Positions 2,541-33,380 of a stretch of DNA of 64,000 bases are shown here, in pieces. The DNA comes from Erysipelotrichaceae bacterium (lineage in GTDB: Bacteria > Bacillota_I > Bacilli_A > RF39 > UBA660): the NCBI GenBank assembly GCA_022772985.1, contig JALEZJ010000055.1, forward strand, positions 1,166 through 65,165, given 5' to 3'. A model generated the notes under the pieces. It searched no databases. It had not been told where the DNA came from and worked only from the letters and a program-made list of their open reading frames with translations. Numbering within the stretch: position 1 is the stretch's first letter; each line of letters begins with the position of its first letter. A program made the position numbers and the translations under genes.

Positions 2541-3530
2541 CTATGTATTTGTATCTGGAGTTACTGTGGTATATCCTGAAAAGACTGCTGTTACTTCACT
2601 ACCTTGTGCTGAATTAAAAGTTACTGTTCCTTGAAAGAAGTTATCTGTAGTTGCTGGAACGTTTGTCCCGCCTGATCCAACCGTTTGGTTTGTACCAGTT
2701 TCACTTAACCATACTACAATATAATATACTTGGGAATCTGCATATGTAGTGCTGCTATCTCCTGTATTATTTGAAGTGTTTCCATCATTTGGGGATAGAA
2801 ATTGATTATATACCAAAGCAGAAGTTACATCATTTGTTTGAGTATAATTTGTCCCTGAATGCTTGCTTACTCTGATATAATTAGTTTTAATGATACTATA
2901 ACTATTTCCTGATATAGTTGCAGTTCCTGTCACTCCGTTCGTTCCAGAAAATGTATCTTTTATTTCATCTGTATCGGCTTGACTTTCCCCGTTGGCTCCT
3001 AATGCAGTCCAAGTAAATCCGGTACTTTCTGTTTGTCTTGCAGTTGATGTTCCGGCTGTTGTGCAACTAGTTAGGTTATTACTTGTTTCTGTACAAAAGG
3101 CTTGCGACCATCTCATAGTGGTAGTAGCTGTTACATAATCTGTTGAATTTCCAGAACCACCTGTTAAAGTTACATAACCATCTACAAACATACTTGCCGT
3201 ACCAGTATTATTGACTGTAATTTTATAAATTTGACAAACGGCGTTTCCATTATCATCTACACAAATTCCTTTCGTGCTAGCATTTGTTACTGCTTTTTCA
3301 ACCATGGAATTCGTCATTGGAATTAATCCACCCTTTGTTTCATCTACTGTTGTCTTTTTGGTTACATTTAGATCAAAAGTAATAGTAGCCATATTTCCTT
3401 TAATGGTTGCATTATTACTTTGGGTTGCGGTAAAATATGCAAATGTTGCTCCAATCGTAGCAACCATCAGCGTCATAATTCCAATTACCATATATATTAT
3501 ATTTTCTTTTTTTCTATTTTTTTCTTGCAC
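2541..3530 (-). CDS. secreted TasA/camelysin-like protein with SipW-type signal peptide (paralogue 1)
   Basis: GTG start (3530-3528) 8 nt after GGAGGA. N-terminus KKENIIYMVIGIMTLMVATIGATFAYFTATQ has a basic region, a hydrophobic helix and a G-x-T-F-A-x-F-T motif, as in TasA/CalY signal peptides. The near-C-terminal segment FFQGTVTFNSAQG resembles the YQG..F.F.A.Q segment near the end of TasA. T/S/N/G-rich, with 4 Cys conserved with the paralogue. Confidence 0.65.
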   Translation of the reverse strand: MQEKNRKKENIIYMVIGIMTLMVATIGATFAYFTATQSNNATIKGNMATITFDLNVTKKTTVDETKGGLIPMTNSMVEKAVTNASTKGICVDDNGNAVCQIYKITVNNTGTASMFVDGYVTLTGGSGNSTDYVTATTTMRWSQAFCTETSNNLTSCTTAGTSTARQTESTGFTWTALGANGESQADTDEIKDTFSGTNGVTGTATISGNSYSIIKTNYIRVSKHSGTNYTQTNDVTSALVYNQFLSPNDGNTSNNTGDSSTTYADSQVYYIVVWLSETGTNQTVGSGGTNVPATTDNFFQGTVTFNSAQGSEVTAVFSGYTTVTPDTNT

Positions 3531-3553
3531 GTTATTTTCCTCCTATTGTTCTT

Positions 3554-3581
3554 ATTATATCAAAAATAAATTTTGACACAA
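3554..3581 (-). promoter_or_regulatory. putative sigma-A promoter of TasA-like paralogue 1
   Basis: On the minus strand: TTGTGT, 16-nt spacer, TATAAT, with the last three spacer bases (TGA) giving an extended -10. About 25 nt upstream of the RBS. Confidence 0.45.
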
Positions 3582-3591
3582 TCACTTTTCA

Positions 3592-3620
3592 AAATAAAAA
3601 AGGCTAATTTTCAGCCCTTT
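3592..3620 (-). terminator. putative rho-independent terminator after TasA-like paralogue 2
   Basis: Minus strand reads AAAGGGCTgaaaattAGCCTTTTTTATTTT immediately after the stop at 3625. The stem is short. Confidence 0.45.
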
Positions 3621-3624
3621 CATC

Positions 3625-4617
3625 TTATGTATTTGGTGTTACTCTTGTATGTCCTGAGAATGTTGCTGTAACCTCACTACCTTGTGCTGAAATGAATGTT
3701 ACATTTCCTTGAAAGAAATCAATTGCATTTGTGGCTGCTCCTGTTGCACCAGAAGTTTGGTTATGACCATTTTCACTTAACCATACTACAATATAATATA
3801 CTTGAGCATCTGTAAATGTACTTGAACTAGTACCAGTATTATTACCAGCATTATTATCATTAGCATCTAAATATTGGCTATATACTAATGCAGATGTTAT
3901 ATCAGTTGCTCTAGTGTAGGCAGTATTACCTATGGCATGATCACTTACGCGGATGTAATTTTTATTAATTACAGTATAATTATTTCCGCTAATAGATGCT
4001 GTTCCTGTTACGTCAGCCGGATTATTTTTTATTTCTGCTGTATTTAATCCTGAATTTTGAGTTGAACTTCCTCCTAAAGCAGACATTGAAATCGTACTTG
4101 ATGCTCTTACGGTAGAATTTCCAGCAGTGGTGCACGCTGTTACTTTTCCAGCAGCTTCTGTACTACAAAATGCTTGTGCCCATCTCATGGTCGTTTTTGC
4201 TGTATTATACTGATAAGTTGGATAATCTTCTGGCGTTCCTGAACCACCTGTTAAAGATACATAACCATCTACAAACATACTTGCAGTACTGGTATTTACT
4301 ACTGTAATTTTGTACACTTGACAAACGGCGTTTCCATTGTTATCTACACAAATTCCATTTGAACTTGCTAGGGCTTGCTCCATCATGTTATTAGACATTG
4401 GAATTAGACCACCTTTTGTTTCATCTACTGTTGTCATTTTGGTAACTGATACATCAAAATTAATTGTCGCCATATTACCAGTAATTGTATTATTGTTTGT
4501 CTGGGTTGCGGTAAAATATGCAAATGTTGCTCCAATAATAGCTATCATTAAAGTAGCAATTCCAATCACTCCATAAAATATGTTATTTATATCATATTTT
4601 TGTTTCTTTTGTTTCAT
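3625..4617 (-). CDS. secreted TasA/camelysin-like protein with SipW-type signal peptide (paralogue 2)
   Basis: The track start (4668) is probably too early, because ATG at 4617 is preceded by AAGGAGGAAT. N-terminus MKQKKQKYDINNIFYGVIGIATLMIAIIGATFAYFTATQ. Near-C-terminal segment FFQGNVTFISAQG. Roughly two-thirds identical to paralogue 1 by eye. Confidence 0.65.
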   Translation of the reverse strand: MKQKKQKYDINNIFYGVIGIATLMIAIIGATFAYFTATQTNNNTITGNMATINFDVSVTKMTTVDETKGGLIPMSNNMMEQALASSNGICVDNNGNAVCQVYKITVVNTSTASMFVDGYVSLTGGSGTPEDYPTYQYNTAKTTMRWAQAFCSTEAAGKVTACTTAGNSTVRASSTISMSALGGSSTQNSGLNTAEIKNNPADVTGTASISGNNYTVINKNYIRVSDHAIGNTAYTRATDITSALVYSQYLDANDNNAGNNTGTSSSTFTDAQVYYIVVWLSENGHNQTSGATGAATNAIDFFQGNVTFISAQGSEVTATFSGHTRVTPNT

Positions 4618-4639
4618 TTTATTCCTCCTTATTTTTTTT

Positions 4640-4668
4640 AGTATAGCAAAATCTGTCAAAAAATGCAA
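4640..4668 (-). promoter_or_regulatory. putative sigma-A promoter of TasA-like paralogue 2
   Basis: Minus strand: TTGCAT, 17-nt spacer, TATACT, about 20 nt upstream of the RBS. Confidence 0.5.
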
Positions 4669-4711
4669 TATTTTTTAAAGGTTTTTATAAACATCTTGTT
4701 ATTCTTAGGGA

Positions 4712-6028
4712 TCAGTTTGTATAAACACTAAAGATATTTGAAGAATATTTTTGATAATAAGTTTGTTTTACATATCTTAAAATTTCTCGATTCGTTTGAA
4801 TTGTTTTAGAAATGGTTGCTTCTTCATCATTAATAATAAAAATACATTTGTTTTCTTTACAATAATCATCAATTTCTTTTAAGTATTTTTCTTCACCATG
4901 ATATCCCATGTTTCCATTGTTAATGATATCATACTTATTAATTGGAATTTCATTGTTTAATTTGATTAAGTAAGAAAAATGTCCTAAAATATAAGGATGA
5001 TATTCTGCATATTCATCTAAATATTTTTTTACATTAAAAACATAATCTTCTGTTACGTTGTAAGTTACTCTTCCTTTCATGAAATTATTTACTTTATAGT
5101 GGCTTAAGTATAAGTAGTTTTGTTCTTGAACCATAATTAATGTATTTAATGCTAGAAAAAATGATATTACAGCGGTAGTACCTAATAAACATATATAATT
5201 ATTCTTTTTAAATTTCAAGAGAACAAGATAAGCCACAGGTATAAAGCTTATAATAAAATGAACATAATCTACAATCGGAAAAGTTATAATCTGAAATAAT
5301 AAACAATAAAATATATCTTTTCGTTTGGTTTTTAATGTTTGATACCCCAAAAACAAGATTATCATCCATTCTATTATAAGTAGTAGATTCATTTGAGTAG
5401 TATTTTTATTTGTAAAGTCAAGCATCCCTAATATACAGTAATCTATAAATTCGAAAATATTATTATTTATTATTAAATATAGAAGAAATAAACATCCACT
5501 TACTAAATAAATAGAAATTGTTTTTTTCTTGTTTTTTATATATATTATACTTGGAATCATTAAAATGGCTAAGCTTTGCTTAGTTAATATCATCATACTG
5601 ATTATGATAGGTTCTAAAATATCTGTATATTTTTTTTCTTGAATGTTTAATAATATAAAGAGTAGTAGTAAACTAAACATGTTATAACCAGTGTATGGAT
5701 AGATAAGCAGTAAAATATAAATAATTATTGTACTTTTTTTTATTGTTTTATAACCTAAGAATGTAATTATTGTGATAATTGTTGCAATTACAAAGTGATA
5801 AACAATTAATTTTTTTCCAAAAATTGCTAATATAAATGATAAAAAATAGCTAAATAATGGGGGGATAATCATATTGAAGTCTTTATAAGGAATGAGTCCT
5901 TCTAAAATATTTTTAGCAAAGCCATAATTAAATAATTCATCATCTACAATTGGTCGTATGTAATATGTATAAATAGTTGTTAAAATAACAAGGCAAATAA
6001 ATACTATTATTTTTTGATATTTTTTCAT
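4712..6028 (-). CDS. polytopic membrane protein, GT-C-fold glycosyltransferase-like (PMT/ArnT type), paralogue 1
   Basis: 438 aa. About 10 hydrophobic segments over the first ~290 aa, then a ~150-aa soluble C-terminal domain. An acidic D-D-E lies directly after TM1 (IVDDELFNYGFAKNILEGLIPYKDFNMIIPPLF). Confidence 0.55.
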   Translation of the reverse strand: MKKYQKIIVFICLVILTTIYTYYIRPIVDDELFNYGFAKNILEGLIPYKDFNMIIPPLFSYFLSFILAIFGKKLIVYHFVIATIITIITFLGYKTIKKSTIIIYILLLIYPYTGYNMFSLLLLFILLNIQEKKYTDILEPIIISMMILTKQSLAILMIPSIIYIKNKKKTISIYLVSGCLFLLYLIINNNIFEFIDYCILGMLDFTNKNTTQMNLLLIIEWMIILFLGYQTLKTKRKDIFYCLLFQIITFPIVDYVHFIISFIPVAYLVLLKFKKNNYICLLGTTAVISFFLALNTLIMVQEQNYLYLSHYKVNNFMKGRVTYNVTEDYVFNVKKYLDEYAEYHPYILGHFSYLIKLNNEIPINKYDIINNGNMGYHGEEKYLKEIDDYCKENKCIFIINDEEATISKTIQTNREILRYVKQTYYQKYSSNIFSVYTN

Positions 6029-6058
6029 TTTTTCTACTTCCTATTCTAAGTTTATTAT

Positions 6059-7399
6059 TTATGTTATATACCCACCAAAAACACTAGATGAATATATTTT
6101 GTTATAATTTTTAGTAACATATTCTAAGATTTCAGCATTCGTTTGATTGTAACTTTTTTTTGTTAATTCCATATCATTTACAATAAATAGGCAACTTTGG
6201 TTTTGACAATCTTTTTTTATTTCTTGAATATATTTTTGACTGCCGTGATATCCCATATTACCATCATTAATTAGATCATATTTGTTGATAGGGATATCTA
6301 AGTATAATTTTACTAAATAGCTATAGTTTCCTAAAATATAGAGCTTGTGGTCTGGATATCTTTGGATAAGTTCTTTCATGGTACTGATGTAATTTTCAGT
6401 AATAATAGGGGTCAATCTTCCTTCTAAAAAAGTATTACTTGTGTTATGGTCTAAATAAATTCGTGGTTTTATCGATGTTACATAATCATTCATGAATAAG
6501 ATGGAAACTTGAATTGTCAAAAGGACGAGGAAGGTAGAGATTTTTATAAATTTGGTAAGTTCTTTTTTTTGAAAAAGTATATAAATAACAGGAGCCCATC
6601 CTAGTACAAAATGACTAATGTCTGTGATTGGAAAAGTAATAATTTGATACATTAAGCAATAAAAAGCATCCTTTCTTTCTCCTTTTGTTTTTATTAAAAT
6701 TTGTAACAAAAAAATACAACTTACTAATTCAATTGGAAAATAGTATGTTCTAGTTAAATTATTTTTTTCTGTAAATTCAAACATTCCTAAAAAGCAATAA
6801 TCTATAAATTCTATTAAGTTATTGTTGATTAATAGATAGGTTAAAAATAATAGAAAACATACAAAATAAACGGCAATTGTCTTCTTTTTATTTTTAGAAT
6901 AGATTATATTTGGAATTATTAAAAGGACTAATGTTTGTTTCGTTTGAATCATTAAACTGATAATGATAGGAATCAGTATTTCTTGTTTGTTTGTTTTTTT
7001 ATCTAGAATTGTTAATAAAAGAAATAATAAAAATAGACTATTGATGTTATATCCATTGGTTGAATAAATTAAAAGACAGCTATAGATTAAAAAGGAATAC
7101 CAGCCTATTTTTTTGGATGCTAAATAAGTAATTCCTGTTACTAACACCGCCATTAGAATATGGTAGACGATTAATTTTTTACCAAAAATGAATAAAATGC
7201 CTGCTGTAATGTAGGGAAAGAGCGGCGGAATAATCATATTAAAATCTTTGTAAGGAATGAGTCCATCTAAAATGTTTTTGGCAAATCCATAATTCCAGAT
7301 TTCATCATAAGAATATAAATTCGTAAGATAAAATGAATGCACTATCGCAATTAATGTTAATAAAAGAAAAATAACAATTTTAAGCATTTTTTTCTTCAT
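6059..7399 (-). CDS. polytopic membrane protein, GT-C-fold glycosyltransferase-like, paralogue 2
   Basis: 446 aa with the same architecture and shared blocks (YDEIWNYGFAKNILDGLIPYKDFNMIIPPLF; INKYD.IN.GNMGYHG). Confidence 0.55.
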   Translation of the reverse strand: MKKKMLKIVIFLLLTLIAIVHSFYLTNLYSYDEIWNYGFAKNILDGLIPYKDFNMIIPPLFPYITAGILFIFGKKLIVYHILMAVLVTGITYLASKKIGWYSFLIYSCLLIYSTNGYNINSLFLLFLLLTILDKKTNKQEILIPIIISLMIQTKQTLVLLIIPNIIYSKNKKKTIAVYFVCFLLFLTYLLINNNLIEFIDYCFLGMFEFTEKNNLTRTYYFPIELVSCIFLLQILIKTKGERKDAFYCLMYQIITFPITDISHFVLGWAPVIYILFQKKELTKFIKISTFLVLLTIQVSILFMNDYVTSIKPRIYLDHNTSNTFLEGRLTPIITENYISTMKELIQRYPDHKLYILGNYSYLVKLYLDIPINKYDLINDGNMGYHGSQKYIQEIKKDCQNQSCLFIVNDMELTKKSYNQTNAEILEYVTKNYNKIYSSSVFGGYIT

Positions 7400-7415: not shown

Positions 7416-8111
7416 CTAAAGTATTTCCATTACTTTTTCAGCTACTTCTTGATGAATTTCTTCCATTGATCTCATGTGATTATTTTTGGTACATTCAATC
7501 ATTTTGAAATGATATAAGGCTTTTAATTCTAAATATGTCTGTTCCGCTCTTTTTAAGTGATTTTTATCTTTTTCGTTTTGATCTTGTAATTCTTTTCTAG
7601 TTTCTTGTAATTCAATTGTGATTTGATAAGGGACATATAATAATATTACTAAATCTGGTTTTGGTAATTCTAACAAATCAAATTCTAAGACTTCTATTTT
7701 TTTAAAAAATTGAAATCTTTCTTCTTGGGTAGGTATTTTTCCACCTTGATGTGCCATATTGGAAAATGTATATCTATCTAAAATTACATGAATACCATTT
7801 TTTAATAATGTTTCAATTTGATTAATATTGTATTTTCTATCTGCAGCATAATAAAGGGATGAAACTAAACCATCTACATTACTTGCACCTTCTTCAAACC
7901 AACCTTTTTTTTCATTTAATAATTTTTGACAAAGTTCTTCTTTTCCTAAATAACATGAACCAATAATTTTACCAGTGGGTGTTCCATAATTTGGAAAGGA
8001 TAAGTGTTTTGCTTTGATGTGTAATTTGGTTAATTTGTTTTCTAATAATTTGGCTTGTGTTTCCTTTCCTGAGCAATCTGTTCCTTCTATTACAATTAAT
8101 TTTCCTCTCAT
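7416..8111 (-). CDS. tmk: thymidylate kinase
   Basis: MRGKLIVIEGTDCSGKETQ P-loop and dTMP kinase blocks. The ATG at 8111 lies 6 nt after AAGGAGA, so the track start at 8117 is unlikely. Confidence 0.9.
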   Translation of the reverse strand: MRGKLIVIEGTDCSGKETQAKLLENKLTKLHIKAKHLSFPNYGTPTGKIIGSCYLGKEELCQKLLNEKKGWFEEGASNVDGLVSSLYYAADRKYNINQIETLLKNGIHVILDRYTFSNMAHQGGKIPTQEERFQFFKKIEVLEFDLLELPKPDLVILLYVPYQITIELQETRKELQDQNEKDKNHLKRAEQTYLELKALYHFKMIECTKNNHMRSMEEIHQEVAEKVMEIL

Positions 8112-8232
8112 TTTCATTCTCCTTCTTACTTGTTTTAGGATTTTAGTTTTCCTACTTTTAATTCTTGTTTATCATATCATATATTTATTAGAAATGCATT
8201 ATAATTAACTAATGAGATAAAATTTGGAATTT

Positions 8233-8357: not shown

Positions 8358-9614
8358 ATGACACATCTAACTATAGAGCACAGAGAAATTATTGAAGATG
8401 CTTTAAAAGAAAAAATGAATTTTACAGAAATTAGTGATATGTTAGGTTACCATAGAACTAGTATATCCGCTGAAATAAAAAATAGAAGAGTTTTAGTTCA
8501 ACAAAATTTATATGGTACTACTTTTGTAAACTGTGAATATGAACATCAATGTGATAAATTTCAAGGTATTGGTTGTAAAAGAAAATGCAATAACTTTAAA
8601 CCTAAACAATGTCCTTCATTAAATAAGCCACCCTATGTTTGTAATGGTTGTTCTAAAAAACATAGATGTAGAATGCAAAAATATTTTTATAGAGCTAAGG
8701 AAGCGCAAAAGGATTATGATGAGTTATTAAAAGAATCTCGTGAAGGAATTAGATTAACACAAAAAGAAATAAACACAATTAATACTGCTATTGTTCCACT
8801 AATAAAAGAACAAGGACAATCTATAAATCAAGTATATATTAATCATCCTGATATTCTCTATTTTTCAAAAACTGAATTTTATAGATTGATTAGTTTAGGC
8901 TACTTTGATTTAAAAAATATTGATTTAAGAAGAAAAGTTAAATATAAATCAAGAAATACTGAATCACCTAGAAGAACAAGAGAAGAAGCAAAAGTAAGAG
9001 TAAATAGAACATATAAAGACTTTGAAAAATTCGTAGAATTACACAAAGAAATCGATATAATTGAAATGGATACCGTTGAAGGATTAAAAGGTGGAAAAGT
9101 AATGCTTACATTATTATTTGTGACATATAATTTTATGCTAATATTTCTATTAGAGTCACAAACTAAAGAAGAGGTAATAAAAAAATTTAAATTTCTAAAA
9201 CAAACATTAACTGAGAATAGATTTAAAGAAATAATAAAAGTACTTCTTACAGACAATGGAAAAGAATTCTATGGAGCTGATGAAATTGAACAAAATTTAG
9301 ATAAAACAGAAAAAATTACAAACTTGTTTTATTGTGATCCAATGGAATCTAATCAAAAACCACATATTGAAAAAAATCATGAATACATTAGATATATTCT
9401 TCCTAAAGGAACATCTTTTGACAACTTAACTCAAGAAGATTGCAATATAATCATGAGTCATATAAATTCAGTACCAAGAGAAAGTTTAAAAAATAAAACA
9501 CCTTATCAAGCAATTCTAAACATACTCACACGAGAAGAATTACTTAAATTAGGTGTTATTGAGATTGAGCCTGACAAAGTCAATCTTACTAAAAAAATAA
9601 TAGATAGTAAATAA
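8358..9614 (+). CDS. IS30-family DDE transposase
   Basis: 418 aa. N-terminal HTH (HLTIEHREIIEDALKEKMNFTEISDMLGYHRTSISAEIKNRR), Cys-rich linker and DDE blocks IEMDTVEG / LLTDNGKEF / HIEKNHEYIRYILPKG. RBS AAAGGAG upstream. Confidence 0.9.
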   Translation: MTHLTIEHREIIEDALKEKMNFTEISDMLGYHRTSISAEIKNRRVLVQQNLYGTTFVNCEYEHQCDKFQGIGCKRKCNNFKPKQCPSLNKPPYVCNGCSKKHRCRMQKYFYRAKEAQKDYDELLKESREGIRLTQKEINTINTAIVPLIKEQGQSINQVYINHPDILYFSKTEFYRLISLGYFDLKNIDLRRKVKYKSRNTESPRRTREEAKVRVNRTYKDFEKFVELHKEIDIIEMDTVEGLKGGKVMLTLLFVTYNFMLIFLLESQTKEEVIKKFKFLKQTLTENRFKEIIKVLLTDNGKEFYGADEIEQNLDKTEKITNLFYCDPMESNQKPHIEKNHEYIRYILPKGTSFDNLTQEDCNIIMSHINSVPRESLKNKTPYQAILNILTREELLKLGVIEIEPDKVNLTKKIIDSK

Positions 9615-10051: not shown

Positions 10052-10756
10052 ATGAAAGTGTTTTTTTATTATTTTTTGCTTTTTTTTATTTATTCCGTTT
10101 TAGGATGGATTATTGAATCTTCTTTGGTTAGTTTTTATGAAAAAAAATTTGTTAATAGAGGGTTTTTGATAGGCCCATATTGTCCTATTTATGGATATGG
10201 ATCACTTGCGATGATTTTATATTTAGATCAATATAAAGATAATGCTATTACTGTATTTCTTTTGGGAGTTGTTATTTGTACTATTTTAGAATATTTTACT
10301 AGCTATATTATGGAAGTTTTATTTAAGACTAGATGGTGGGACTATAGCGATAAAAAATTTAATTTAAATGGTCGAGTTTGTGGGAAAAATGCTATTTTAT
10401 TTGGAATTGGTGGAATTTTTATTATTTATGTAGCTCAACCTTTTTTGACAAAGATTCTATCCTTCATTCCAGATATTGCTTTGTTTCCTATTTCAATAGT
10501 GTTATTTATTATTTTTCTTACTGATACTATTTTTTCTTTAAATATTATGACACGATTTAAGAAAACAATCACTAGTATTGATTTAAAGAAAGATTCTACT
10601 CAAGAGTTTTCTAAGATGGTACGTGATGCTATTAGTAATAATCATCGTATTTTCCAAAAAAGGTTAATGACTGCATTTCCTAATCTTGATTTTAATAAAG
10701 TGATAGAATTTAAAAATAAGATAAAAGAAGAATTGAGGGAAACTTCTAAAAAGTAG
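10052..10756 (+). CDS. integral membrane protein, resembles the family annotated as putative ABC-transporter type IV (CmpB-like)
   Basis: 234 aa. N-terminal block YSVLGWIIES...FVNRGFLIGPYCPIYGYG is typical of that family. About 5 TM segments. Confidence 0.55.
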   Translation: MKVFFYYFLLFFIYSVLGWIIESSLVSFYEKKFVNRGFLIGPYCPIYGYGSLAMILYLDQYKDNAITVFLLGVVICTILEYFTSYIMEVLFKTRWWDYSDKKFNLNGRVCGKNAILFGIGGIFIIYVAQPFLTKILSFIPDIALFPISIVLFIIFLTDTIFSLNIMTRFKKTITSIDLKKDSTQEFSKMVRDAISNNHRIFQKRLMTAFPNLDFNKVIEFKNKIKEELRETSKK

Positions 10757-10838: not shown

Positions 10839-11543
10839 TTAACTGCCTATATATGTTAGTATTACTGGAGCTAAAATAATGATTAGTATTAGTGGTACGA
10901 AGAAGAAGACAGATATGATACTAATTTTAATGGGAACCTTGCTAATTTCTGCTTTTACTTCTAATTTTCTTTTTTCTCTTAGATAATCAATTTGGTTATA
11001 AAGACTTTTAATAATACTACTTCCATATAAGTTGGCTTGAGTTAAGGAGAGGATAATATTATTAATGGTATCTGATGGTACGGATGATTGCATATCTTCT
11101 AGAGCTTCTGTTAGACTTTTGCCAAACTTTACTTCACGTATCACTTCTAGAAATTCGTTTACTAATTCTCCTTGACAAGAGTTGATTGTTACATCTAATG
11201 CTTCTTGGAGATTTCTACCTGTTTCTAAGGAGAGAGTTAATATTTCAAAGAAGTTTAACGATTCCATTTCTAATTGAATTTGTCTGTTATGAATTTTTCT
11301 ATCTAGTAAAAAATAGGTAATTCCTTTATAATAAAGAAAACTTAATATTGGTGCTATTAGGTATCCTATATTGCTTATATATAATACTAGAAAAAATAAG
11401 ATAATCATTCCTAGAAGGCGAATATTTAGAAATAAATAAGGATTTAATTTGGTAGAAACACCTAATAACTTTATCTTTTTTTCTATTTCCTCTACGCTCT
11501 TTTGGCGATATAATTTTTTAGAAATATAATGTTCTTCTATCAT
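10839..11543 (-). CDS. tadC: Tad pilus assembly inner-membrane platform protein, TadC-like (T2SS F domain)
   Basis: 234 aa. T2SSF-type block LSLETGRNLQEALD...FGKSLTEALEDM followed by a C-terminal TM. Last gene of the operon. Confidence 0.75.
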   Translation of the reverse strand: MIEEHYISKKLYRQKSVEEIEKKIKLLGVSTKLNPYLFLNIRLLGMIILFFLVLYISNIGYLIAPILSFLYYKGITYFLLDRKIHNRQIQLEMESLNFFEILTLSLETGRNLQEALDVTINSCQGELVNEFLEVIREVKFGKSLTEALEDMQSSVPSDTINNIILSLTQANLYGSSIIKSLYNQIDYLREKRKLEVKAEISKVPIKISIISVFFFVPLILIIILAPVILTYIGS

Positions 11544-11546
11544 AGC

Positions 11547-12524
11547 TTACACCTTAACTTTCATGATTTTATTTAAAAGATATATATAACTTATAAACAT
11601 TAGGCCAATGACTAATAATATCATATATCCTAGGGTAGAAGAAAATAGTGGTTCAAAGTAAGTAGGACTAATTACATAAATTAAAAGGACAAAAATAATG
11701 GGAATTACCATTAGTACTTTTACTACTAAATTAGATGCTGCTGTAGAATTTTTTAAATCACTTTCTAACTTTTTTTTATCAAATAAAGTTCTTTCAATAC
11801 TAGAAAATACATGAATAATATTACCACCTGTTTTATTTAAAATCGTTAGGGATGAGGCAATATAATTTGCTTCTTCTAATTTTACTCTTTTGGCAAATCG
11901 TCCAAAGGCTACATCCACGCTTAGTCCATATGACATGTCTTGATAGATTTTTTGAAATTCTCTTGCTATTGGCATTGGTAAATCTAAACTAGCGATTTCT
12001 ATTGCTTGAAGGGTGCTTTTCCCAGCTTTAAATGCATTATTCATCACAATTACTGCTCTTAACATATCATTTTTTATTTTTTTTGTTCTTCTTTTGGTTT
12101 TAACGATTAGATAGATATCATAAAGATAATAACCAGTTATAAAACTAATTAAAAAACCGATAATTCCTATTAGTTTTCCTTGAATTGCATATGAGATAAC
12201 AATTAAGGCTACAAAGCAAAATGCAATTAATAGTTTATTTATTATAAATTCAATAGCAGCCATTTTTTCTCCAACTGGAATGTATTTTTCATATTTGGTA
12301 GAGTACTTCATCAGTACTTTATTTTTTTGAAAGTGTGAGACTAGTTTTTGATACTTATCCCATAATTTATCAAAGTAACTTAATTCTTCCGTGCTATTTA
12401 TTTTTAGGCTATATCGAGCAATTCTTCTTTCCATGTGAATTGCTTTTCTAATTTTATATAATAGTAAAATAATGGTAAAGGCTAAAATTCCTAAAATTAG
12501 TCTTATGATGAAAACTCTATTCAC
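11547..12524 (-). CDS. tadB: Tad pilus assembly inner-membrane platform protein, TadB-like (T2SS F domain)
   Basis: 325 aa. AFKAGKSTLQAIEIAS...YGLSVDVAFGRFAKRV block flanked by TM segments. Confidence 0.75.
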   Translation of the reverse strand: MNRVFIIRLILGILAFTIILLLYKIRKAIHMERRIARYSLKINSTEELSYFDKLWDKYQKLVSHFQKNKVLMKYSTKYEKYIPVGEKMAAIEFIINKLLIAFCFVALIVISYAIQGKLIGIIGFLISFITGYYLYDIYLIVKTKRRTKKIKNDMLRAVIVMNNAFKAGKSTLQAIEIASLDLPMPIAREFQKIYQDMSYGLSVDVAFGRFAKRVKLEEANYIASSLTILNKTGGNIIHVFSSIERTLFDKKKLESDLKNSTAASNLVVKVLMVIPIIFVLLIYVISPTYFEPLFSSTLGYMILLVIGLMFISYIYLLNKIMKVKV

Positions 12525-12543
12525 GATTACACCTTCCTATTCT

Positions 12544-13590
12544 TTAATTGGAATGAATGGTTCCGCCCCACTCTACAGCAGTGAAACCTATTCTTTGAAA
12601 CTTTGTTAAAACTTGTTCTTTTATGTTTACTTTGCTATCTACTTTTTTAATATGCATATTTACTCTGAGAATAGAATCCGGAGTGGGATTTATGATTAAT
12701 TTATTATTTTTTTCTCTTTCTTCTGTTAATTCAAAATATACTAAACTTTGTTTATTTTCTTCTAACTTAGGTAACCAATACATAATAAACTCATTTTTTT
12801 CTTTATCATTTAAACCAATTATGGATAATTTTTCTTCTAGAAAAGGAATGGCTTCTTCTTTTGTAACATAAAATCCGGTTTTAAAATCTACAGAATTAGG
12901 ATTGTATTCATCCCAATATAATGCATAATAATATTTTCCATTTTGGTCATATAAATCGCCATTAGAATGTGCTAAAACATTCCAACCATCTTGATATTTT
13001 GGATATGAAGTAATTATTTTATCACTTTTTTCTAATTTTATATTGATAGACATATTTGTTTTAGGATATAGATATAAAATAGGTTTATATGCGATTAATT
13101 CGTCACACTTTTCTAATTGTTCTACCTGATAATCTGCTTTTATTTCTTCTATCTTTTGATTTTTTGGAATAGGAATCATAAAAATATGTGATTGAAGAAG
13201 ACAATTTTCGCAACTTTTCTTAACTTTAAATGTTAGATAGGCCGTGTTATTTTTTATTGTCATATCTTGAATGGAAACGTCTTCACTACAATTATCTGCT
13301 AATACTCCATAATATAGATAATTATTCTTTTTAAAATTGCTTTCTAAGATATTCGTTTCATTGTCTATTTCATACTGTGTTTTTAATTGCTGATATTCTT
13401 GATAATTGTGAACTATACCGCTGAAATCTCCTTCTAGTGTATCTTTTGTTGTGTAAAATTCTAATACTTGACTTAAGTTATTTGATTCTTTTTTAGATAG
13501 ATAAAAATTTATTAGTATTCCTATTAAAACTATTATTATACCTATTAAAATGAATTTTTTATTTTTTATTAAGAAAGTAAAATTTTTCAC
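12544..13590 (-). CDS. hypothetical membrane-anchored protein embedded in the tad operon
   Basis: 348 aa. GTG start 6 nt after GGGGGA. One N-terminal TM (FILIGIIIVLIGILINFYL). No recognisable domain. Tightly packed between tadA and tadB. Confidence 0.5.
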   Translation of the reverse strand: MKNFTFLIKNKKFILIGIIIVLIGILINFYLSKKESNNLSQVLEFYTTKDTLEGDFSGIVHNYQEYQQLKTQYEIDNETNILESNFKKNNYLYYGVLADNCSEDVSIQDMTIKNNTAYLTFKVKKSCENCLLQSHIFMIPIPKNQKIEEIKADYQVEQLEKCDELIAYKPILYLYPKTNMSINIKLEKSDKIITSYPKYQDGWNVLAHSNGDLYDQNGKYYYALYWDEYNPNSVDFKTGFYVTKEEAIPFLEEKLSIIGLNDKEKNEFIMYWLPKLEENKQSLVYFELTEEREKNNKLIINPTPDSILRVNMHIKKVDSKVNIKEQVLTKFQRIGFTAVEWGGTIHSN

Positions 13591-13604
13591 CTTTTATCCC
13601 CCGT

Positions 13605-14945
13605 TCATGATATTTTATTACTTTTAAAAATTGTATCTAATTCATCTATTCCTCTTTTTTTGATTTTATCATATGCTTTGGGAGTTATCCTTCTTTTTAT
13701 AAAATCTCCTATTACGGTTCCATCTGCTAGAGTGTCATTTTGGTTATAGCCAAAAATTTCTTTTACTAAAATATTTCCATCTTTTAATCCATCTACTTCA
13801 CTGATGCTAGTTATTTTTCTCCTTCCATCAGTTAAGCGATCAATTTGAATCACTATATCAATGGCATTTTCAATATAACCACGAACTGCTCCAACTGGAA
13901 TGGACATTTCATTCATTAAAATCATCGTTTCTAATCGATTTAAGGCATCAATTGGACTATTCGCATGAAGAGTTGTAATGGAACCTTCATGGCCTGTATT
14001 CATTGCTTGCATCATATCAAAAGCTTCTTTTCCACGTACTTCTCCTACAATGATTCGATCGGGCCTCATACGTAATGAATTACGTACTAAATCTCTAATT
14101 GTCACTTCCCCTTCTCCTTCATAATTTGTGAGTCTAGTTTCTAGAGATATTACATGTTTTTGTTTTAATCTTAATTCAGCAGCATCTTCAATTGTAATGA
14201 TTCGTTCTTCTTGTCCTATAAAACTACTCAAGATATTTAAAAGTGTTGTTTTTCCAGTACCAGTACCACCGCTAATTAAAATATTTAATTTTGCTTTTAC
14301 ACATGATTCTAGGAAAGTGGCCATTTCATTGGTTAACGCTCCTTTTATTAATAAATCATCAATACTTTCTAAATTTTTGGCAAACTTACGAATTGTAAGA
14401 ACTGGTCCTGTTAGAGATAATGGTGGAATAATTGCATTTAATCTACTTCCATCTCTTAGTCTAGCGTCTACCATTGGGTTAGCTGCATCAATTGTTCTTC
14501 CTAGTGGTTGAACAATTCTTTGAATGGTACGAATAATATGTTTCTCATTAATAAAAGATACCGATTCTTCTTTTACTAATTTTCCTTCTACTTCTACATA
14601 AATTGCATTGGGTCCATTTACCGTAATTTCAGTTATGGTATCGTCACGAAGTAATTCTGTAATTGGTCCATACCCGTTGATTTCATTTTGAATCAAATTA
14701 AAAATGTAATTTCTTTGTAAATAATCTAAATCATAGCCACTAATGCTTTTATCTATTTCATCATTAATATATTGTTCTAATAGTTTATCTTCTGGAATAT
14801 TTTCATCTATTAAATTTTGAATAATTTTGGTTCTTAGATTTTCTAAAAGTTCTTTATCTTGAAAAACTTCATAATCACTAATATTATTTATTTTTAAGGA
14901 AGTGGGTTTTACCTCAAATGCATCCATTAAGCTTTGTTTACTCAT
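13605..14945 (-). CDS. tadA: Tad/CpaF-family secretion ATPase
   Basis: 446 aa. Walker [15 protein letters not shown], plus [25 protein letters not shown] and [14 protein letters not shown] blocks typical of CpaF/TadA. Confidence 0.9.
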
Positions 14946-15738
14946 TGATATCTTCTTCCTCCTTTTTTTCAGTTGATTCCTTAATTAACTGAAGTGCAAT
15001 AGAACGAATTCTATTAATATCACCGCCATGAAAACGTAAAATATTACGATTTAAAGTTAATATTTCTCCATTTAAAACATATTTATCAATATTTTTAATA
15101 TAAAAACTATTGGAAATCGTATAATCTATATTACATTTTATAATATTTCGAATATCAAATAAAGATAGATAATCCCTGCCAGTATCTCTTGAGCAATTTA
15201 AGCAAACTAAATAATTTGTCTTTCCAGTATCTTTAAAAATACGAATCATACTTTTCATATTTTTTAAGTCGATTAAATCATTGGTTACCATAAATAATGA
15301 CATATAGGAATGATCTAAAATCATTAAACTTACTTCATTCATAATATGATTCGTATCTACTAAAATTACATCATATTCTCTTTTGGCAAGTTCAAAAATC
15401 ATTGGAATGTATTTGCAATCTATTTTAAGCGCACATCTAGGATCTCTTGGGCTTGCTAGTACATCAATTCCTTGATTATAACTTACTACATAATCTTCAA
15501 TATTACTATATCGATTATTAGAAATGCTGTCAATCATCATAAATATATCTTTTTTATTGCGAATATCTAACCAAGCAGAGACACCACCACTATAAAAGTC
15601 TGCATCAATAATTAAGACTCTTTTTTTCATCATATAATAAATTCCTGCTAAATTGATGGTCATGGTCGTTTTACCAACACCACCTTTTACTGAGGAAATA
15701 CTAATTATTTTTCCATTTCTAACTGCCATTTTAATCAC
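14938..15738 (-). CDS. MinD/ParA-type ATPase, TadZ/CpaE-like
   Basis: 266 aa with deviant Walker A SVKGGVGKTT. Located immediately upstream of tadA, as in tad loci. Confidence 0.65.
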   Translation of the reverse strand: MIKMAVRNGKIISISSVKGGVGKTTMTINLAGIYYMMKKRVLIIDADFYSGGVSAWLDIRNKKDIFMMIDSISNNRYSNIEDYVVSYNQGIDVLASPRDPRCALKIDCKYIPMIFELAKREYDVILVDTNHIMNEVSLMILDHSYMSLFMVTNDLIDLKNMKSMIRIFKDTGKTNYLVCLNCSRDTGRDYLSLFDIRNIIKCNIDYTISNSFYIKNIDKYVLNGEILTLNRNILRFHGGDINRIRSIALQLIKESTEKKEEEDINE

Positions 15739-15741
15739 CTC

Positions 15742-16215
15742 TTACTTGATTTTTTCTATTTTTTTGATGTTTCCATCTAAATATCCACGATATTCACTTT
15801 CAATTTCAAATCCATTAAATCCAAAAAAGGTAGCGAATATTCCTTTTACGTAAGATTTACTAGAAATTATTATACTATCTTCTTGTGCTATTACTTTATT
15901 TTGACTGTTTTTTTGATTATAATCTAGTAAAGTTTTTAATTTTTCTAATTCAGTTGTTTTTTCTTCTGATAAAGTATCTTTTTTTTCATCTTCACTTAAT
16001 TCATTTTTTGCTTCTTCTGAGACTGTTTCTTGCTCTATTTGTTCTATCTTGTTGGTTAATCCATAATCTAAGATAAATTCAATTTGATTGTCCATTTCGT
16101 TTTTTTGAATTAAAACGTTCCCTACATCTAGTACTAAAGTCATTATTCCAAGTAGAATCGGAATTATCAAAATAAATAGTACTAGACTTTGTCCTTTGTT
16201 ATTCAGCATTTGCAA
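15742..16215 (-). CDS. TadE/TadG-like pseudopilin
   Basis: 157 aa. N-terminus NNKGQSLVLFILIIPILLGIMTLVLDVGN resembles the TadE/G-like Flp pilus-assembly N-terminal domain. Confidence 0.6.
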   Translation of the reverse strand: MQMLNNKGQSLVLFILIIPILLGIMTLVLDVGNVLIQKNEMDNQIEFILDYGLTNKIEQIEQETVSEEAKNELSEDEKKDTLSEEKTTELEKLKTLLDYNQKNSQNKVIAQEDSIIISSKSYVKGIFATFFGFNGFEIESEYRGYLDGNIKKIEKIK

Positions 16216-16537
16216 TTACCCTTTCTACTTTAATTTGATATGGATCTCCTAAAATTCTATCTAAAAATGGGGTAATTAGATCAATTTTTTCTATTAAAAT
16301 TATTCTTTGATAATCTTCTTGATAAGAAGTTACTTCTATTTCTACATTAGAATAATTTTTAGAAACTTCTTGTAAATTTTCCCCATTTTGAATCAAACGA
16401 GCTATGTCTGTACTTTGATTTTGTAACTTATTTTTAGAATATAATAGGTTTCCAAAATCAACAATTACAAATAAAATCATTAAAAAAATAGGTAAAATTA
16501 AGACAAATTCAATTAATGCTTGGCCTTTTTTGTTCAT
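16199..16537 (-). CDS. TadE-like pseudopilin
   Basis: 112 aa. N-terminus MNKKGQALIEFVLILPIFLMILFVIVDFG carries a G/xxxxEF prepilin-type processing motif followed by a hydrophobic helix. Confidence 0.7.
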   Translation of the reverse strand: MNKKGQALIEFVLILPIFLMILFVIVDFGNLLYSKNKLQNQSTDIARLIQNGENLQEVSKNYSNVEIEVTSYQEDYQRIILIEKIDLITPFLDRILGDPYQIKVERVIANAE

Positions 16538-16783: not shown

Positions 16784-17080
16784 ATGAATGATAGAGATAT
16801 GTATTATGGATCATATGGATATGGTGGTTTTAGTCCACTTCAAAATATGCCAAATGGAATGCAACCTATGATTGGTACTCAGATTCCTACACAAGTACCT
16901 AACCAGATGATGCAAAATACTTATGCTACTAGTCAATTTAATGATATGAATGAGCGAGTAAATCGTTTAGAACGCCAAGTAAAAAGATTAGATCAACGTC
17001 TTACAAGACTAGAAACTCCATATGCTAATCAAACTCAATCGCAAAATAATGAGCCTGATAATAATATGTATATGATGTAA
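16784..17080 (+). CDS. small Q/N/M/Y-rich protein with a central coiled-coil heptad segment
   Basis: 98 aa. Strong RBS AGGAGG lies 8 nt before the ATG, and a terminator follows. Low-complexity ends flank NERVNRLERQVKRLDQRLTRLE. Confidence 0.5.
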   Translation: MNDRDMYYGSYGYGGFSPLQNMPNGMQPMIGTQIPTQVPNQMMQNTYATSQFNDMNERVNRLERQVKRLDQRLTRLETPYANQTQSQNNEPDNNMYMM

Positions 17081-30335: not shown

Positions 30336-31295
30336 TTACTTTTTTCTTGGAATATAGCGAAGAGTTTTTGGAATACTTTTTTTGATTTCTTTTTCTAAAT
30401 TAATATTTTCTTTAAATAATTCATAAAAAATATAGTGATAATCCTCATTTGTTAGTTTTATCTTTTGAATATTCTTTTTATAAATAGAAATACTTATCAG
30501 TATTTTAGCAATGAAATCATCCCATTTATGAACTTTAAAACTTAATGTATCTTGGATTCCTTTGTAATTATTAATTTTTTGATAAAAATATTCATCAAAA
30601 ATATTGATACAAGATATACTTTTTAAGATGGAATAGTTGTCGTTTAAATAGTCATAATATTGAATTCCACCTTCTAAATAATTTTTAGAACATCCAGGAC
30701 ATTGGCATTTGATATTTAATGTATCTTGAATAGTACCATTTTTTGGGCTAAGTGCTATTAAATTTGTAGAATACTTTTCTTGAATTTCAAGAAGATTTTC
30801 TTGTTCTAAAAATAAATTTTTATATTCTTGATAAATTTCTAGTGTTTCTTCATTTCCAATTAGAAAGTATAATTTTGGTATTAATTCTTCAAAATTACCT
30901 TCTAAAAGAGTGTAAGCTTTTTTTTCTAACTCACCAAATGTTAATACTTGATACTCTTGTTGCCTTTGAATTGAATATAGAATTCTGATTATGTTTGCTA
31001 ATTCTTTTATATCAAATTTTCCATATTCTTCTAATGGATGAGGAGCATTCCACGTTTTTGCAGAATAATATGTTATCATCTCGTCTAAATTTGGGAATTT
31101 ATCATATAGTATTATTTTTTTACTATTTTTAGATATGAAGAAATTCGTATAAGGTTCTATTGAATGAAGAACTTCTTGTTTTAACACTATATCTTTATGT
31201 TTTATTGTTTCTTCTGTTTGTTTTCTTGACTTTTTGATTTCTGTTTCACTTTTAAAAAATTCTTTCTTGATTTGATTGTTTTGTCTTTTTCCCAT
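30336..31295 (-). CDS. hypothetical protein, member 1 of a three-paralogue family (unknown function)
   Basis: 319 aa with a K/E-rich helical N-terminus. Shared blocks: HPLEEYGKFDIKELANIIRILYS, EYQVLTFG, GIQDTLSFKVH..DDFIAKILISISIYKKN. C-terminal tail IPKTLRYI. Confidence 0.5.
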   Translation of the reverse strand: MGKRQNNQIKKEFFKSETEIKKSRKQTEETIKHKDIVLKQEVLHSIEPYTNFFISKNSKKIILYDKFPNLDEMITYYSAKTWNAPHPLEEYGKFDIKELANIIRILYSIQRQQEYQVLTFGELEKKAYTLLEGNFEELIPKLYFLIGNEETLEIYQEYKNLFLEQENLLEIQEKYSTNLIALSPKNGTIQDTLNIKCQCPGCSKNYLEGGIQYYDYLNDNYSILKSISCINIFDEYFYQKINNYKGIQDTLSFKVHKWDDFIAKILISISIYKKNIQKIKLTNEDYHYIFYELFKENINLEKEIKKSIPKTLRYIPRKK

Positions 31296-31321
31296 AAAAA
31301 CCCCTACCTACTTAAAATTTT

Positions 31322-32236
31322 TTATTTTACATATTTTAATGTCTTAGGAATATTTTTTTCTACTCCTTTTGCAACATCAACAGAATATTCTCTAAATATT
31401 TTTTGAAAAATGTATCGATAATCATCATTAGTTAAATCATGAACTTTTCTATTTTTCTTATAAATAGCAATTCCAATCAAAATTTCTGCTAAAAAAGTAT
31501 CATCCTTATGAATTGGAAAACTAATGGTGTCATTCATACCTTCATAATTTGCAAATTTCTGATAAACTCTTTTATCAAATATATTAATTTGATCACTATA
31601 TTGAACACTACACTGTATTTCTTCATCCTCTATCCAATCACAGTAATTAATTCCTGGATCATTTCTTAAGAATTTTGGACAATTACATTGGATTTTCAAG
31701 GTATCATCAAGTGCATACTTAGGAAATAGGCTAATCTGGTTTGCTTTCTTTACATATTCTATTGGAACATAATCATCTGCTATAAAACAATTTTGATACA
31801 ATTGATATGGTTTTAATTGTTCTTGTTCCCCGACTGTAAATTGTAGAGATGGTTTTCTTGTTACCAACTGTTCTTTTATTTTTTCTTTCTTTAAATAGCC
31901 AACAGTCAATATCTGATATTCTTTTTGATTTTGTAGAGAATAAATCAGACGAATAATTTCTATTAATTCTTTAATATTAAAATAACCATACTCCCAAATT
32001 GGGTGAAAAGAGTTATCTGAATAAGGACTACTATAATAAGCTTTCAGAACTTCTAAATCAGGAAAATTTTCTACAAAAACAAAATCTTTTTTTTGAAAAG
32101 AAGCAAAATAGTTTGGATAAAGGGTCTTTTTTTCCATCTCTTTATTTTTAATAGCAATGTCATATTCTCTCATCATACTTATTTTTTCTTTTTGTAATTT
32201 TTTTATTTCTAAATTTATTTTTTCTATCTTTGTCAT
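31322..32236 (-). CDS. hypothetical protein, member 2 of the three-paralogue family
   Basis: Likely start at 32236 (MTKIEK...), 5 nt after AAGGAGAG. Same blocks as member 1 (HPIWEYGYFNIKELIEIIRLIYS; NDTISFPIH; IAIYKKN). Tail IPKTLKYV. Confidence 0.5.
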   Translation of the reverse strand: MTKIEKINLEIKKLQKEKISMMREYDIAIKNKEMEKKTLYPNYFASFQKKDFVFVENFPDLEVLKAYYSSPYSDNSFHPIWEYGYFNIKELIEIIRLIYSLQNQKEYQILTVGYLKKEKIKEQLVTRKPSLQFTVGEQEQLKPYQLYQNCFIADDYVPIEYVKKANQISLFPKYALDDTLKIQCNCPKFLRNDPGINYCDWIEDEEIQCSVQYSDQINIFDKRVYQKFANYEGMNDTISFPIHKDDTFLAEILIGIAIYKKNRKVHDLTNDDYRYIFQKIFREYSVDVAKGVEKNIPKTLKYVK

Positions 32237-32247
32237 GTTTCTCTCCT

Positions 32248-33210: not shown

Positions 33211-33380
33211 TTTATACCTTCTTTCTAATTTAATCATATCATAGATTTCTTATCTCATCATAATAATTAATTAGCAATTAATATAAAGTTTTCTCTATTT
33301 TTAAATACAAAACTTATCTTTGAATCACTAATTATCAAATTGAACTATCTAAAAAGTAAGTAACATATCATCTATATTAC

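Follow-up and report, generated by a model that had tools for sequence, protein, structure and literature searches.

We analysed a 64,000-nucleotide stretch of DNA (the window) from contig JALEZJ010000055.1 of assembly GCA_022772985.1, assigned to an Erysipelotrichaceae bacterium of the RF39 lineage, and focused on two tandem genes for secreted proteins, A1 and A2, that lie beside two tandem genes for membrane proteins, G1 and G2. The DNA is low in GC (about 27%), and the coding order on the minus strand is tmk, G2, G1, A2, A1. The thymidylate kinase gene tmk (7416-8117; PF02223, E 4.6e-23), a conserved upstream neighbour of the G genes, is followed by G2 (6059-7399), which encodes a 446-aa polytopic membrane protein with a GT-C glycosyltransferase fold, and G1 (4712-6028), which encodes a 438-aa polytopic GT-C-like protein with a soluble C-terminal domain; NCBI lists both as hypothetical. 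A2 (3625-4617) specifies a 330-aa secreted protein with a SipW-type N-terminus, annotated as a SipW-dependent-type signal peptide-containing protein (MCI6265684.1). A1 (2541-3530), which starts with GTG, specifies a 329-aa secreted protein, also with a SipW-type N-terminus, annotated as hypothetical protein MR598_02415. The four proteins have the accessions MCI6265683-MCI6265686 and the locus tags MR598_02415-02430. An earlier interpretation, made without database searches and here called the sequence-only reading, had proposed that A1 and A2 are TasA-like fibre subunits modified by G1 and G2 as dedicated enzymes.

Both gene pairs are paralogous. A1 and A2 are 62% identical (E 2e-127), confirming the tandem pair of about 330 residues each that had been recognized from the letters, while G1 and G2 are 49% identical (E 8e-133) and are old paralogues. 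The mosaic DNA identity reported between the A genes also held up: a 35-nt stretch encoding IGATFAYFTAT, the predicted cleavage region, is exactly the same at 3421-3455 in A1 and 4502-4536 in A2, and a second exact stretch of 34 nt links positions 2699 and 3771. The A2 open frame runs to a TTG at 4668 (3625-4668). Its true start is almost certainly the ATG at 4617, giving 330 residues, because AAGGAGG lies 7 nt upstream of this codon and a public 330-aa protein is 100% identical.

The spacing of the genes points to separate transcription of the two pairs. A gap of 17 nt separates the tmk stop from G2, which suggests that the GT-C genes are transcribed together with tmk and not with the A genes; tmk is their probable operon partner. 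From the layout of the DNA, A2 and A1 appear to be transcribed apart from tmk-G2-G1, as separate units. A terminator-like hairpin with a T-run (3597-3621, minus strand; 11-pair stem with 3 GC pairs, then a T-rich tail) separates the stop codon of A2 from the promoter region of A1. The ATG of A2 is itself preceded by a promoter-like site (4631-4659, minus strand), followed by the AAGGAGG, for which a scan gave TTGACA-17-AAAAAT and inspection by eye gave TTGCAT-17-TGCTATACT, each a match to consensus only. The sequence-only reading had credited both A genes with a promoter-like element and a ribosome-binding site of their own. Good ribosome-binding sites precede both genes, but promoter-like hexamers were no commoner in this AT-rich region than in shuffled sequence (29 found, 43 expected). 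Because the hexamers are not enriched, the case for promoters belonging to the A genes rests on position, the ribosome-binding sites and the hairpin between A2 and A1.

Both A proteins begin with a basic stretch and a single hydrophobic helix, followed by IGATFAYFTATQ, and both carry FFQG.VTF.SAQG in the C-terminal region. Protein alignment revealed the common blocks TTVDETKGGLIPM, ASMFVDGYV.LTGGSG and QVYYIVVWLSE, and four cysteines in each protein (90/99/146/156 in A1 and 90/99/151/162 in A2). All these features had been described from the sequence, as had the assignment of the N-terminus to the SipW-dependent class, with which our profile searches agree. A2 passes TIGR04088 marginally (19.8-19.9 bits, cut-off 19), and 24 of 71 A-family members match this model, with a best E of 1.4e-5. 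TIGR04088 was not reported for A1 by hmmscan, although IGATFAYFTATQ is identical in the two proteins.

As the sequence-only reading had stated, the 64-kb window encodes no recognizable SipW-type (S26B) signal peptidase: blastp with a SipW sequence and a search with a hidden Markov model (HMM) built from eight SipW-like proteins of related loci were both empty. Other genomes differ (loci are cited by our own L numbers). S26B genes that pass TIGR02228 (scores of 73-104 bits, above its cut-off of 51.85) are next to A arrays in L031, L039, L040, L046, L054 and L077, and an S26B gene next to the array of L078 was assigned by similarity. In metagenome-assembled genomes of other gut Bacilli (L039, L040, L046, L077 and L078), arrays of three to seven A genes are followed directly by a short S26B peptidase with TGSMxP, THR and GDNN motifs, scoring 85-104 bits on TIGR02228, a model of the archaeal and endoplasmic reticulum type of signal peptidase; L031 and L054 have a long-form S26B peptidase beside their A-family genes. 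The position of S26B peptidases directly after A arrays argues that the A family is a genuine SipW-cognate family. We also considered, as the missing SipW, an S26 gene located 10 kb upstream of the orthologous locus in L001, and rejected it since its C-terminus is of the bacterial type (GDNR..S.DSR-like).

A second kind of SipW system was seen at L098:7896-14546, L031:12627-15605 and L054:5190-9916. Its S26B peptidase is long (379-391 aa) and has a polytopic N-terminal domain; beside it are small secreted proteins with the N-terminus VG(F/Y)A(A/L)YS..L.(I/V).G, and a DUF5305-like protein, Pfam-confirmed only for L098. L098 and L054 additionally encode a large protein of 625-799 aa with the same VG(F/Y)A-type N-terminal motif.

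The A family is large. More than 1000 relatives of A2 were found in a large protein collection, none of them with a Pfam domain, and an exhaustive search (E up to 0.001) yielded 750 clusters at 50% identity; A1 matches the A-family HMM at 2e-70. The majority are short forms of 205-260 aa that have the N-terminal third and the C-terminal strands in common with A1 and A2. The window proteins are long forms with an insert of about 110 residues, and a small number of members are extended by large additional domains at the C-terminus (P0241, 640 aa; P0334, 470 aa; P0342, 647 aa). The family core is strongly conserved, including two invariant cysteines and an invariant P73. The genes form arrays with a median of three per locus and up to 14 paralogues.

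Membership of the TasA/camelysin family, which the sequence-only reading had suggested, was not supported. PF12389 (Peptidase_M73) gave A2 15.1-15.2 bits (cut-off 22.5) over residues 16-70 only, did not match A1, and matched 13 of 71 A relatives, all weakly and at the N-terminus only. A TasA-like fold fared no better. The AlphaFold2 monomer model of A2 (predicted local distance difference test score, pLDDT, 77.9) is a beta-sandwich in which residues 29-48 are disordered (pLDDT <50). Foldseek matched this model to generic beta-sandwiches (best PDB E-value 1.5e-3, to ApaG) and ranked the TasA fibre 8aur_A 36th (E 0.03, TM 0.27/0.36), so we did not accept these matches as evidence for a TasA fold. 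When A-family profiles were compared with PDB sequences, the narrow profile gave no match and the broad profile gave only chance matches (nanobodies and pilin, E of 0.4 or weaker).

What the A family does appear to have in common with TasA lies at the N-terminus. Alignment by hhalign of the A-family profile with a TasA/CalY profile built from 43 sequences gave a probability of 45.7% over 49 columns, pairing A2 residues 11-63 with TasA residues 5-51; with the narrow A profile the probability was 1.1%. The aligned span covers the signal peptide, the TasA donor strand (residues 28-38; PMC9674648) and the linker, and the globular domain lies outside it. In these alignments a relationship to TasA was detected over the first ~50 residues only, and the globular domain is not demonstrably homologous. 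A1 and A2 thus resemble TasA, CalY and camelysin, the SipW-processed proteins of PF12389 that form Bacillus biofilm fibres, in their signal class (a basic stretch, a hydrophobic helix and G-x-T-F/W-A-x-F), in the 20-30 residues after the cleavage site, which align with the TasA donor strand and linker, and in being beta-rich, secreted and encoded as tandem paralogues, with an S26B peptidase linked in other genomes. They differ in having two conserved disulfide-type cysteine pairs, in the long-form insert, in the lack of a significant Pfam or globular-domain profile match, in the low Foldseek scores, and in having neither sipW nor tapA beside their genes. Our reading is that the A family is a new family that has its export and processing signal in common with proteins of the type of TasA and of BsaA, the SipW-dependent matrix polymer of Clostridium perfringens, and probably the N-terminal exchange strand as well.

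We propose that A2 and A1, separately transcribed members of this large uncharacterised family of gut Bacilli, would be exported through Sec, cleaved behind GATFA by an S26B peptidase of the SipW type, whose gene would lie elsewhere in the genome, and folded into a disulfide-containing beta-sandwich. A general signal peptidase is a possible alternative cutter, because T-F-A fits the -3/-1 rule. The freed N-terminal segment, which hhalign aligns with the TasA donor strand and which is disordered in the monomer model, would most likely mediate subunit-to-subunit assembly into a surface fibre or coat.

A different view of the A proteins is that they are not fibre subunits at all. They may instead be membrane-anchored or shed variable surface-coat proteins that serve antigenic or adhesive diversity, with the N-terminal helix acting as an uncleaved anchor or a simple signal peptide. 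The tandem arrays of up to 14 paralogues (median 3 per locus) and the large extra C-terminal domains of P0241, P0334 and P0342 would suit such proteins, as would the mosaic DNA identity of A1 and A2, which suggests gene conversion; the undetectable TasA fold and the lack of SipW in the window also fit. However, the SipW-type peptidases that end arrays in several genomes argue for specific processing, the residues just behind the cleavage motif are conserved and can be aligned to the donor strand and linker of TasA, and the family core, with its two invariant cysteines and P73, is strongly conserved. We therefore regard variable coat proteins as unlikely and retain assembly through the freed N-terminal segment as our proposal.

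G1 and G2 both have, as the sequence-only reading described for these upstream polytopic paralogues, an Asp-Glu pair directly after the first transmembrane helix (TM1) and a soluble C-terminal domain, which is about 130 aa long. Among 42 homologues, D32 is invariant, E33 is conserved in at least 90%, and D52, in the same first loop after TM1, is also invariant. The soluble domain carries an invariant D-x-I-N-x-G-N-x-G-x-x-G motif and two cysteines. The AlphaFold2 model of G2 has a pLDDT of 91.8 and a predicted TM-score (pTM) of 0.91, and Foldseek ranks 1-8 were all GT-C proteins: PglB (top), ALG9, AftA, ALG3, GPI mannosyltransferase I (GPI-MT-I), PimE and EmbA/B, with probabilities of 0.85-1.00, TM of 0.36-0.50 and E-values of 2.7e-3 or weaker. 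The GT-C fold suggested for the membrane paralogues is thus supported.

Every score of G1 and G2 against a named family fell below the Pfam cut-off. G2 scored 17 bits with GT87 (PF09594; cut-off 25) and 10.6 bits with PMT_2 (PF13231; cut-off 26.1), and the sole match of G1 was to DUF6057 (PF19529; 17.1 bits, cut-off 29.8, E 0.0027). The only recurring Pfam matches among the 42 homologues were PMT_2 (nine proteins, best E 4.2e-6), GT87 (four) and DUF6057 (four), all three of which we take to be members of the GT-C clan. G1 matches the G-family HMM at 5e-200; the G-family profile had no HMM match among PDB sequences. The G proteins are therefore like the PMT_2, ArnT, GT87 and YfhO enzymes in predicted fold, in the Asp-Glu pair after TM1 and in their weak matches to PMT_2, GT87 and DUF6057, and like GT-C enzymes that use lipid carriers in that homologues occur in clusters with GT2 and YfhO genes. 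Unlike the named GT-C families, they are short (about 440 aa), score sub-threshold everywhere, and end in a soluble domain that matches nothing known. We conclude that the G family forms a GT-C subfamily that is as yet unnamed and is set apart by its soluble domain.

By analogy with PMT, ArnT and YfhO-type enzymes, G2 and G1 would use the Asp-Glu pair that follows TM1 to move a sugar from a polyprenyl-phosphate carrier onto an acceptor at the outer face of the membrane. The K-rich N-terminus and the fold alignment would place the Asp-Glu loop on that face, a crude hydropathy count not being decisive; hydropathy-based counting of transmembrane helices in G1 and G2 was set aside as too crude to fix the topology. 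An HMM search found no GT2 enzyme for a lipid carrier in the window. The acceptor would most likely be a glycoconjugate of the cell envelope or a wide range of surface proteins. With PglB as the top structural match, N-glycosylation was another candidate activity, and we rejected it: neither G1 nor G2 has a WWDYG-like motif, which sets them apart from STT3-type oligosaccharyltransferases, and the A proteins show no enrichment of sequons. The many N-x-S/T sequons noted earlier are there, but at the frequency expected for proteins so rich in Asn, Ser and Thr (mean z 0.34 over 43 homologues).

We next consider how often the two families occur together. A scan of species-representative genomes with the narrow A-family alignment gave 457 confirmed relatives, and 74 loci were kept; a G-family scan of metagenome contigs gave 34 loci, about 20 with enough flanking DNA. 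A G homologue lay within 10 kb of the A genes in 10 of the 74 genome loci, always as tmk-G-A, and the other 64 had A genes without a GT-C gene within that distance. Among the roughly 20 informative metagenome loci, three had an A gene next to G (L082, L087 and L109) and about 16 had none, with L098 lying beside a different SipW operon. The order of tmk and GT-C is conserved in L001-L012, L028, L029, L035, L036, L083, L086, L088 and L115-L117, and at this position each family also occurs without the other. In L083, L086 and L088, the gene after tmk-G is not an A gene but an unrelated one in convergent orientation; L105 matches L004 in synteny except that the A gene is missing; and in L031 and L037 an A gene comes directly after tmk with no GT-C gene. 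Further G genes lie between a gene that looks GH25-like from its sequence and gyrB (L089 and L090), or are clustered with a GT2 and a PMT_2 protein (L091) or with GT2 and YfhO (L093 and L103). Where both families are present, the G:A copy ratio is 1:1 (L001 and L004), 2:1 (L115 and L117), 1:2 (L116), 1:6 (L028) or, in the window, 2:2. Elsewhere, L111:3954-9290 and L110:1-3574 contain three to four tandem G-family genes with no A gene nearby, from which it follows that the G family expands on its own; in L111, the tandem genes are followed by a further polytopic protein of 478 aa.

Together, these data favour, at about an even chance in our estimate, a locus made of two units, tmk-G2-G1 on the one hand and A2 and A1 on the other, juxtaposed at a variable spot downstream of tmk. 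An enzyme-substrate module is not demonstrated. The dedicated GT-C partners of the sequence-only reading, and the linkage of the two families across genomes that they imply, were poorly supported, as adjacency is limited to the tmk locus, the partners occur singly and their copy numbers are unmatched.

A dedicated module would work as follows: G1 and G2, possibly with one enzyme per sugar or per subunit, would glycosylate the exported, SipW-cleaved A1 and A2 on the outer membrane face, and the subunits would then polymerise into a fibre. Several observations weigh in its favour and against two merely juxtaposed units. The tmk-G-A arrangement is kept in one clade over moderate divergence, where tmk is 58-76% identical and the A proteins are 41-70% identical to A2, and has thus been kept longer than random neighbours usually are. 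Both families are duplicated in the window. A1 and A2 contain 26-31% Ser+Thr, which makes them plausible substrates for O-glycosylation, and the Asp-Glu motif after TM1 resembles that of the protein O-mannosyltransferases (PMTs). In L098, a distant G homologue (32% identical) lies directly upstream of an independent SipW operon, that of the second kind described above, with genes for a secreted protein predicted as a beta-sandwich, for a SipW-type peptidase of the long form and for a protein with DUF5305. Finally, glycosylation of a TasA homologue has a precedent in archaea, where AbpA is N-glycosylated (PMC9245690). A separate point against our own proposal is that it only infers fibre formation by the A family, whose globular domain has no detectable relative of known structure.

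The points in favour of a dedicated module are outweighed by the comparative data, which mostly oppose strict coupling. Besides the 64 of 74 A loci without a nearby GT-C gene and the approximately 16 of 20 informative GT-C loci without an A gene, either partner can stand alone at this one position after tmk, copy numbers are not matched, and the A and G genes appear as separate transcription units. Neither sequons nor Ser/Thr content distinguish linked from unlinked A copies (Ser+Thr 0.219 in GT-C-linked genes and 0.214 in unlinked genes, p 0.57), and the window has neither a lipid-carrier GT2 nor SipW. Support for a dedicated pairing of G1 and G2 with A1 and A2 is therefore weak, too weak to build on without experiment, and both this pairing and the module as a whole seem to us quite improbable. 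That G1 and G2 glycosylate A1 and A2 in some manner, dedicated or not, is a real possibility, although we lean against it.

One such manner would be that G1 and G2 are general, PMT-like O-glycosyltransferases of surface proteins, and that A1 and A2 are two of their many substrates, Tad pilus proteins perhaps being others. The adjacency of A and G would then reflect shared surface biology and not exclusivity. Of the recurring Pfam matches, PMT_2 ranks first (9 of 42 homologues, best E 4.2e-6), the Asp-Glu pair is conserved, the family expands in tandem to up to four copies (L111), and GT-C homologues lie beside Tad-like genes in L091, L093, L099 and L102, as do G1 and G2 in the window, where a Tad cluster is 3.4 kb away. 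However, no acceptor was identified, L001, L004 and L115-L117 have no Tad cluster nearby, and homologues also occur beside YfhO and GT2 genes. Pairing of CsbB with YfhO is a signature of teichoic-acid rather than protein glycosylation. On balance, we consider a general role in protein O-glycosylation unlikely, and return to two juxtaposed units as the reading to be preferred.

A commoner neighbour of the A family is an atypical F-type ATPase-like gene cluster. It lies upstream of the A array on the same strand, mostly at a distance of 0.4-2 kb, in 26 of 74 genome loci (L040:4338-12807, L026, L033, L039, L043, L046, L048, L050, L052-L054, L056-L060, L062, L063, L065, L068, L070, L072-L075 and L080), compared with 10 of 74 for the GT-C genes. 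The genes of the L040 cluster run from c (81 aa) through b-like (253 aa), alpha-like (441 aa), beta-like (451 aa), epsilon-like (84 aa) and a protein with four transmembrane helices (174 aa) to gamma-like (260 aa), and no 'a' subunit was seen among them. Identity between the beta-like proteins of different loci is 66-100%. The cluster was not established as a mycoplasma type 2/3 F1-like ATPase: it has a c-subunit gene, and its beta protein scores higher with canonical F1 beta (369 bits) than with the beta subunit of the gliding G1-ATPase of Mycoplasma mobile (292 bits). Some of the ATPase-linked arrays are followed by a short SipW-type peptidase and a membrane protein of 570-705 aa of no known family. 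The window contains no atypical ATPase cluster.

The cluster may be the organisms' own ATP synthase in an unusual gene order, its linkage to A genes being mere synteny. It may also be functionally coupled to the A arrays, by analogy with the mycoplasma F1-like X0 ATPase that is needed by the MIB-MIP surface system (PMC3369863, PMC12994834). In its most far-reaching form, this idea would make the A family a new kind of strand-exchange polymer, processed by SipW, on the surface of uncultured gut Bacilli (RF39/Erysipelotrichaceae-like), with its assembly or function coupled to dedicated machinery in the membrane, in most lineages the ATPase-like cluster, and with a long-form copy captured beside a glycosylating GT-C in the window lineage. 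We regard this combination as a long shot.

Two known systems place a fibre subunit and glycosylation together in ways that bear on the locus. TfpW of Pseudomonas aeruginosa is a GT-C enzyme encoded next to its pilin substrate, in a pairing that is strict and operonic. The window likewise has GT-C genes beside putative fibre subunits; here, adjacency is restricted to a lineage and the genes are apparently transcribed separately. AbpA, the bundling pilus protein of Pyrobaculum calidifontis and a TasA homologue, shows extra density at three N-x-S/T sites and has no dedicated signal peptidase encoded nearby (PMC9245690). It is thus a precedent for a glycosylated TasA-type fibre and, like the window, lacks a neighbouring signal peptidase gene. 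AbpA differs in being archaeal and in depending on general N-glycosylation machinery instead of an adjacent enzyme; conversely, sequons are not enriched in the A proteins, and G1 and G2 have no oligosaccharyltransferase WWDYG motif.

BsaA offers a third comparison, as type IV pilus genes of C. perfringens aid the secretion of SipW-dependent BsaA and BsaC, and a remote TasA-like N-terminal exchange loop has been proposed for BsaA (PMC11580942). Like the A proteins, BsaA has a SipW-type signal and paralogues, in its case in one operon. Similar to the BsaA setting, a Tad/Flp-like pilus cluster (10839-16537, minus strand) lies in the window 3.4 kb from the A and G genes. Its products are TadC and TadB (T2SSF), a 348-aa protein, two ATPases (CpaF/TadA and ParA-like) and a pair of TadE-like proteins, and we recognized neither an Flp pilin gene nor a prepilin peptidase among them. 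The two settings differ in that relatives of the window do not retain the Tad cluster nearby, and TIGR04090, the BsaA model, was touched by only 2 of 71 A members (E about 0.01), with no evidence for isopeptide-forming residues. We rejected the Tad cluster as a conserved assembly partner, given that an IS30-like gene and a divergent CmpB gene intervene and the cluster is missing at the same position in relatives. Because other genes occupy its place there, we did not count it as part of the feature.

The intervening genes are both on the plus strand. The IS30-like transposase gene (8358-9614), with a match to HTH_38 and a weak match to an integrase core, lies between tmk and the CmpB-family gene (10052-10756), which is upstream of tmk. 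The IS30-like gene looks like a recent insertion, because relatives have no such gene at this position. Further along, a 98-aa Gln/Asn/Met/Tyr-rich protein with the C-terminal coiled-coil-like segment RLERQVKRLDQRLTRLE is encoded at 16784-17080 (plus strand); in L086, its conserved homologue adjoins a cation-ATPase-like gene. At 30336-35861 (minus strand), three tandem paralogues of about 310-330 aa ending in IPKTLRY(I/V) are followed by an 826-aa open reading frame. Pfam gave no match for the two of these proteins that were searched, the 319-aa paralogue and the 826-aa product.

The A family is restricted to poorly known, mostly uncultured gut Bacilli. As it is large and occurs in multi-copy arrays of up to 14 genes, some of which close with a SipW peptidase dedicated to them, it probably contributes a major component to the surface or matrix of the cells. 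The acceptor of the G family, if known, would show how the surface of these reduced Firmicutes is decorated. If the A proteins form fibres, they would extend the strand-exchange principle of TasA, BsaA and AbpA to a new fold, and a strand-exchange polymer coupled to membrane machinery, and possibly glycosylated, would be of high interest if true.

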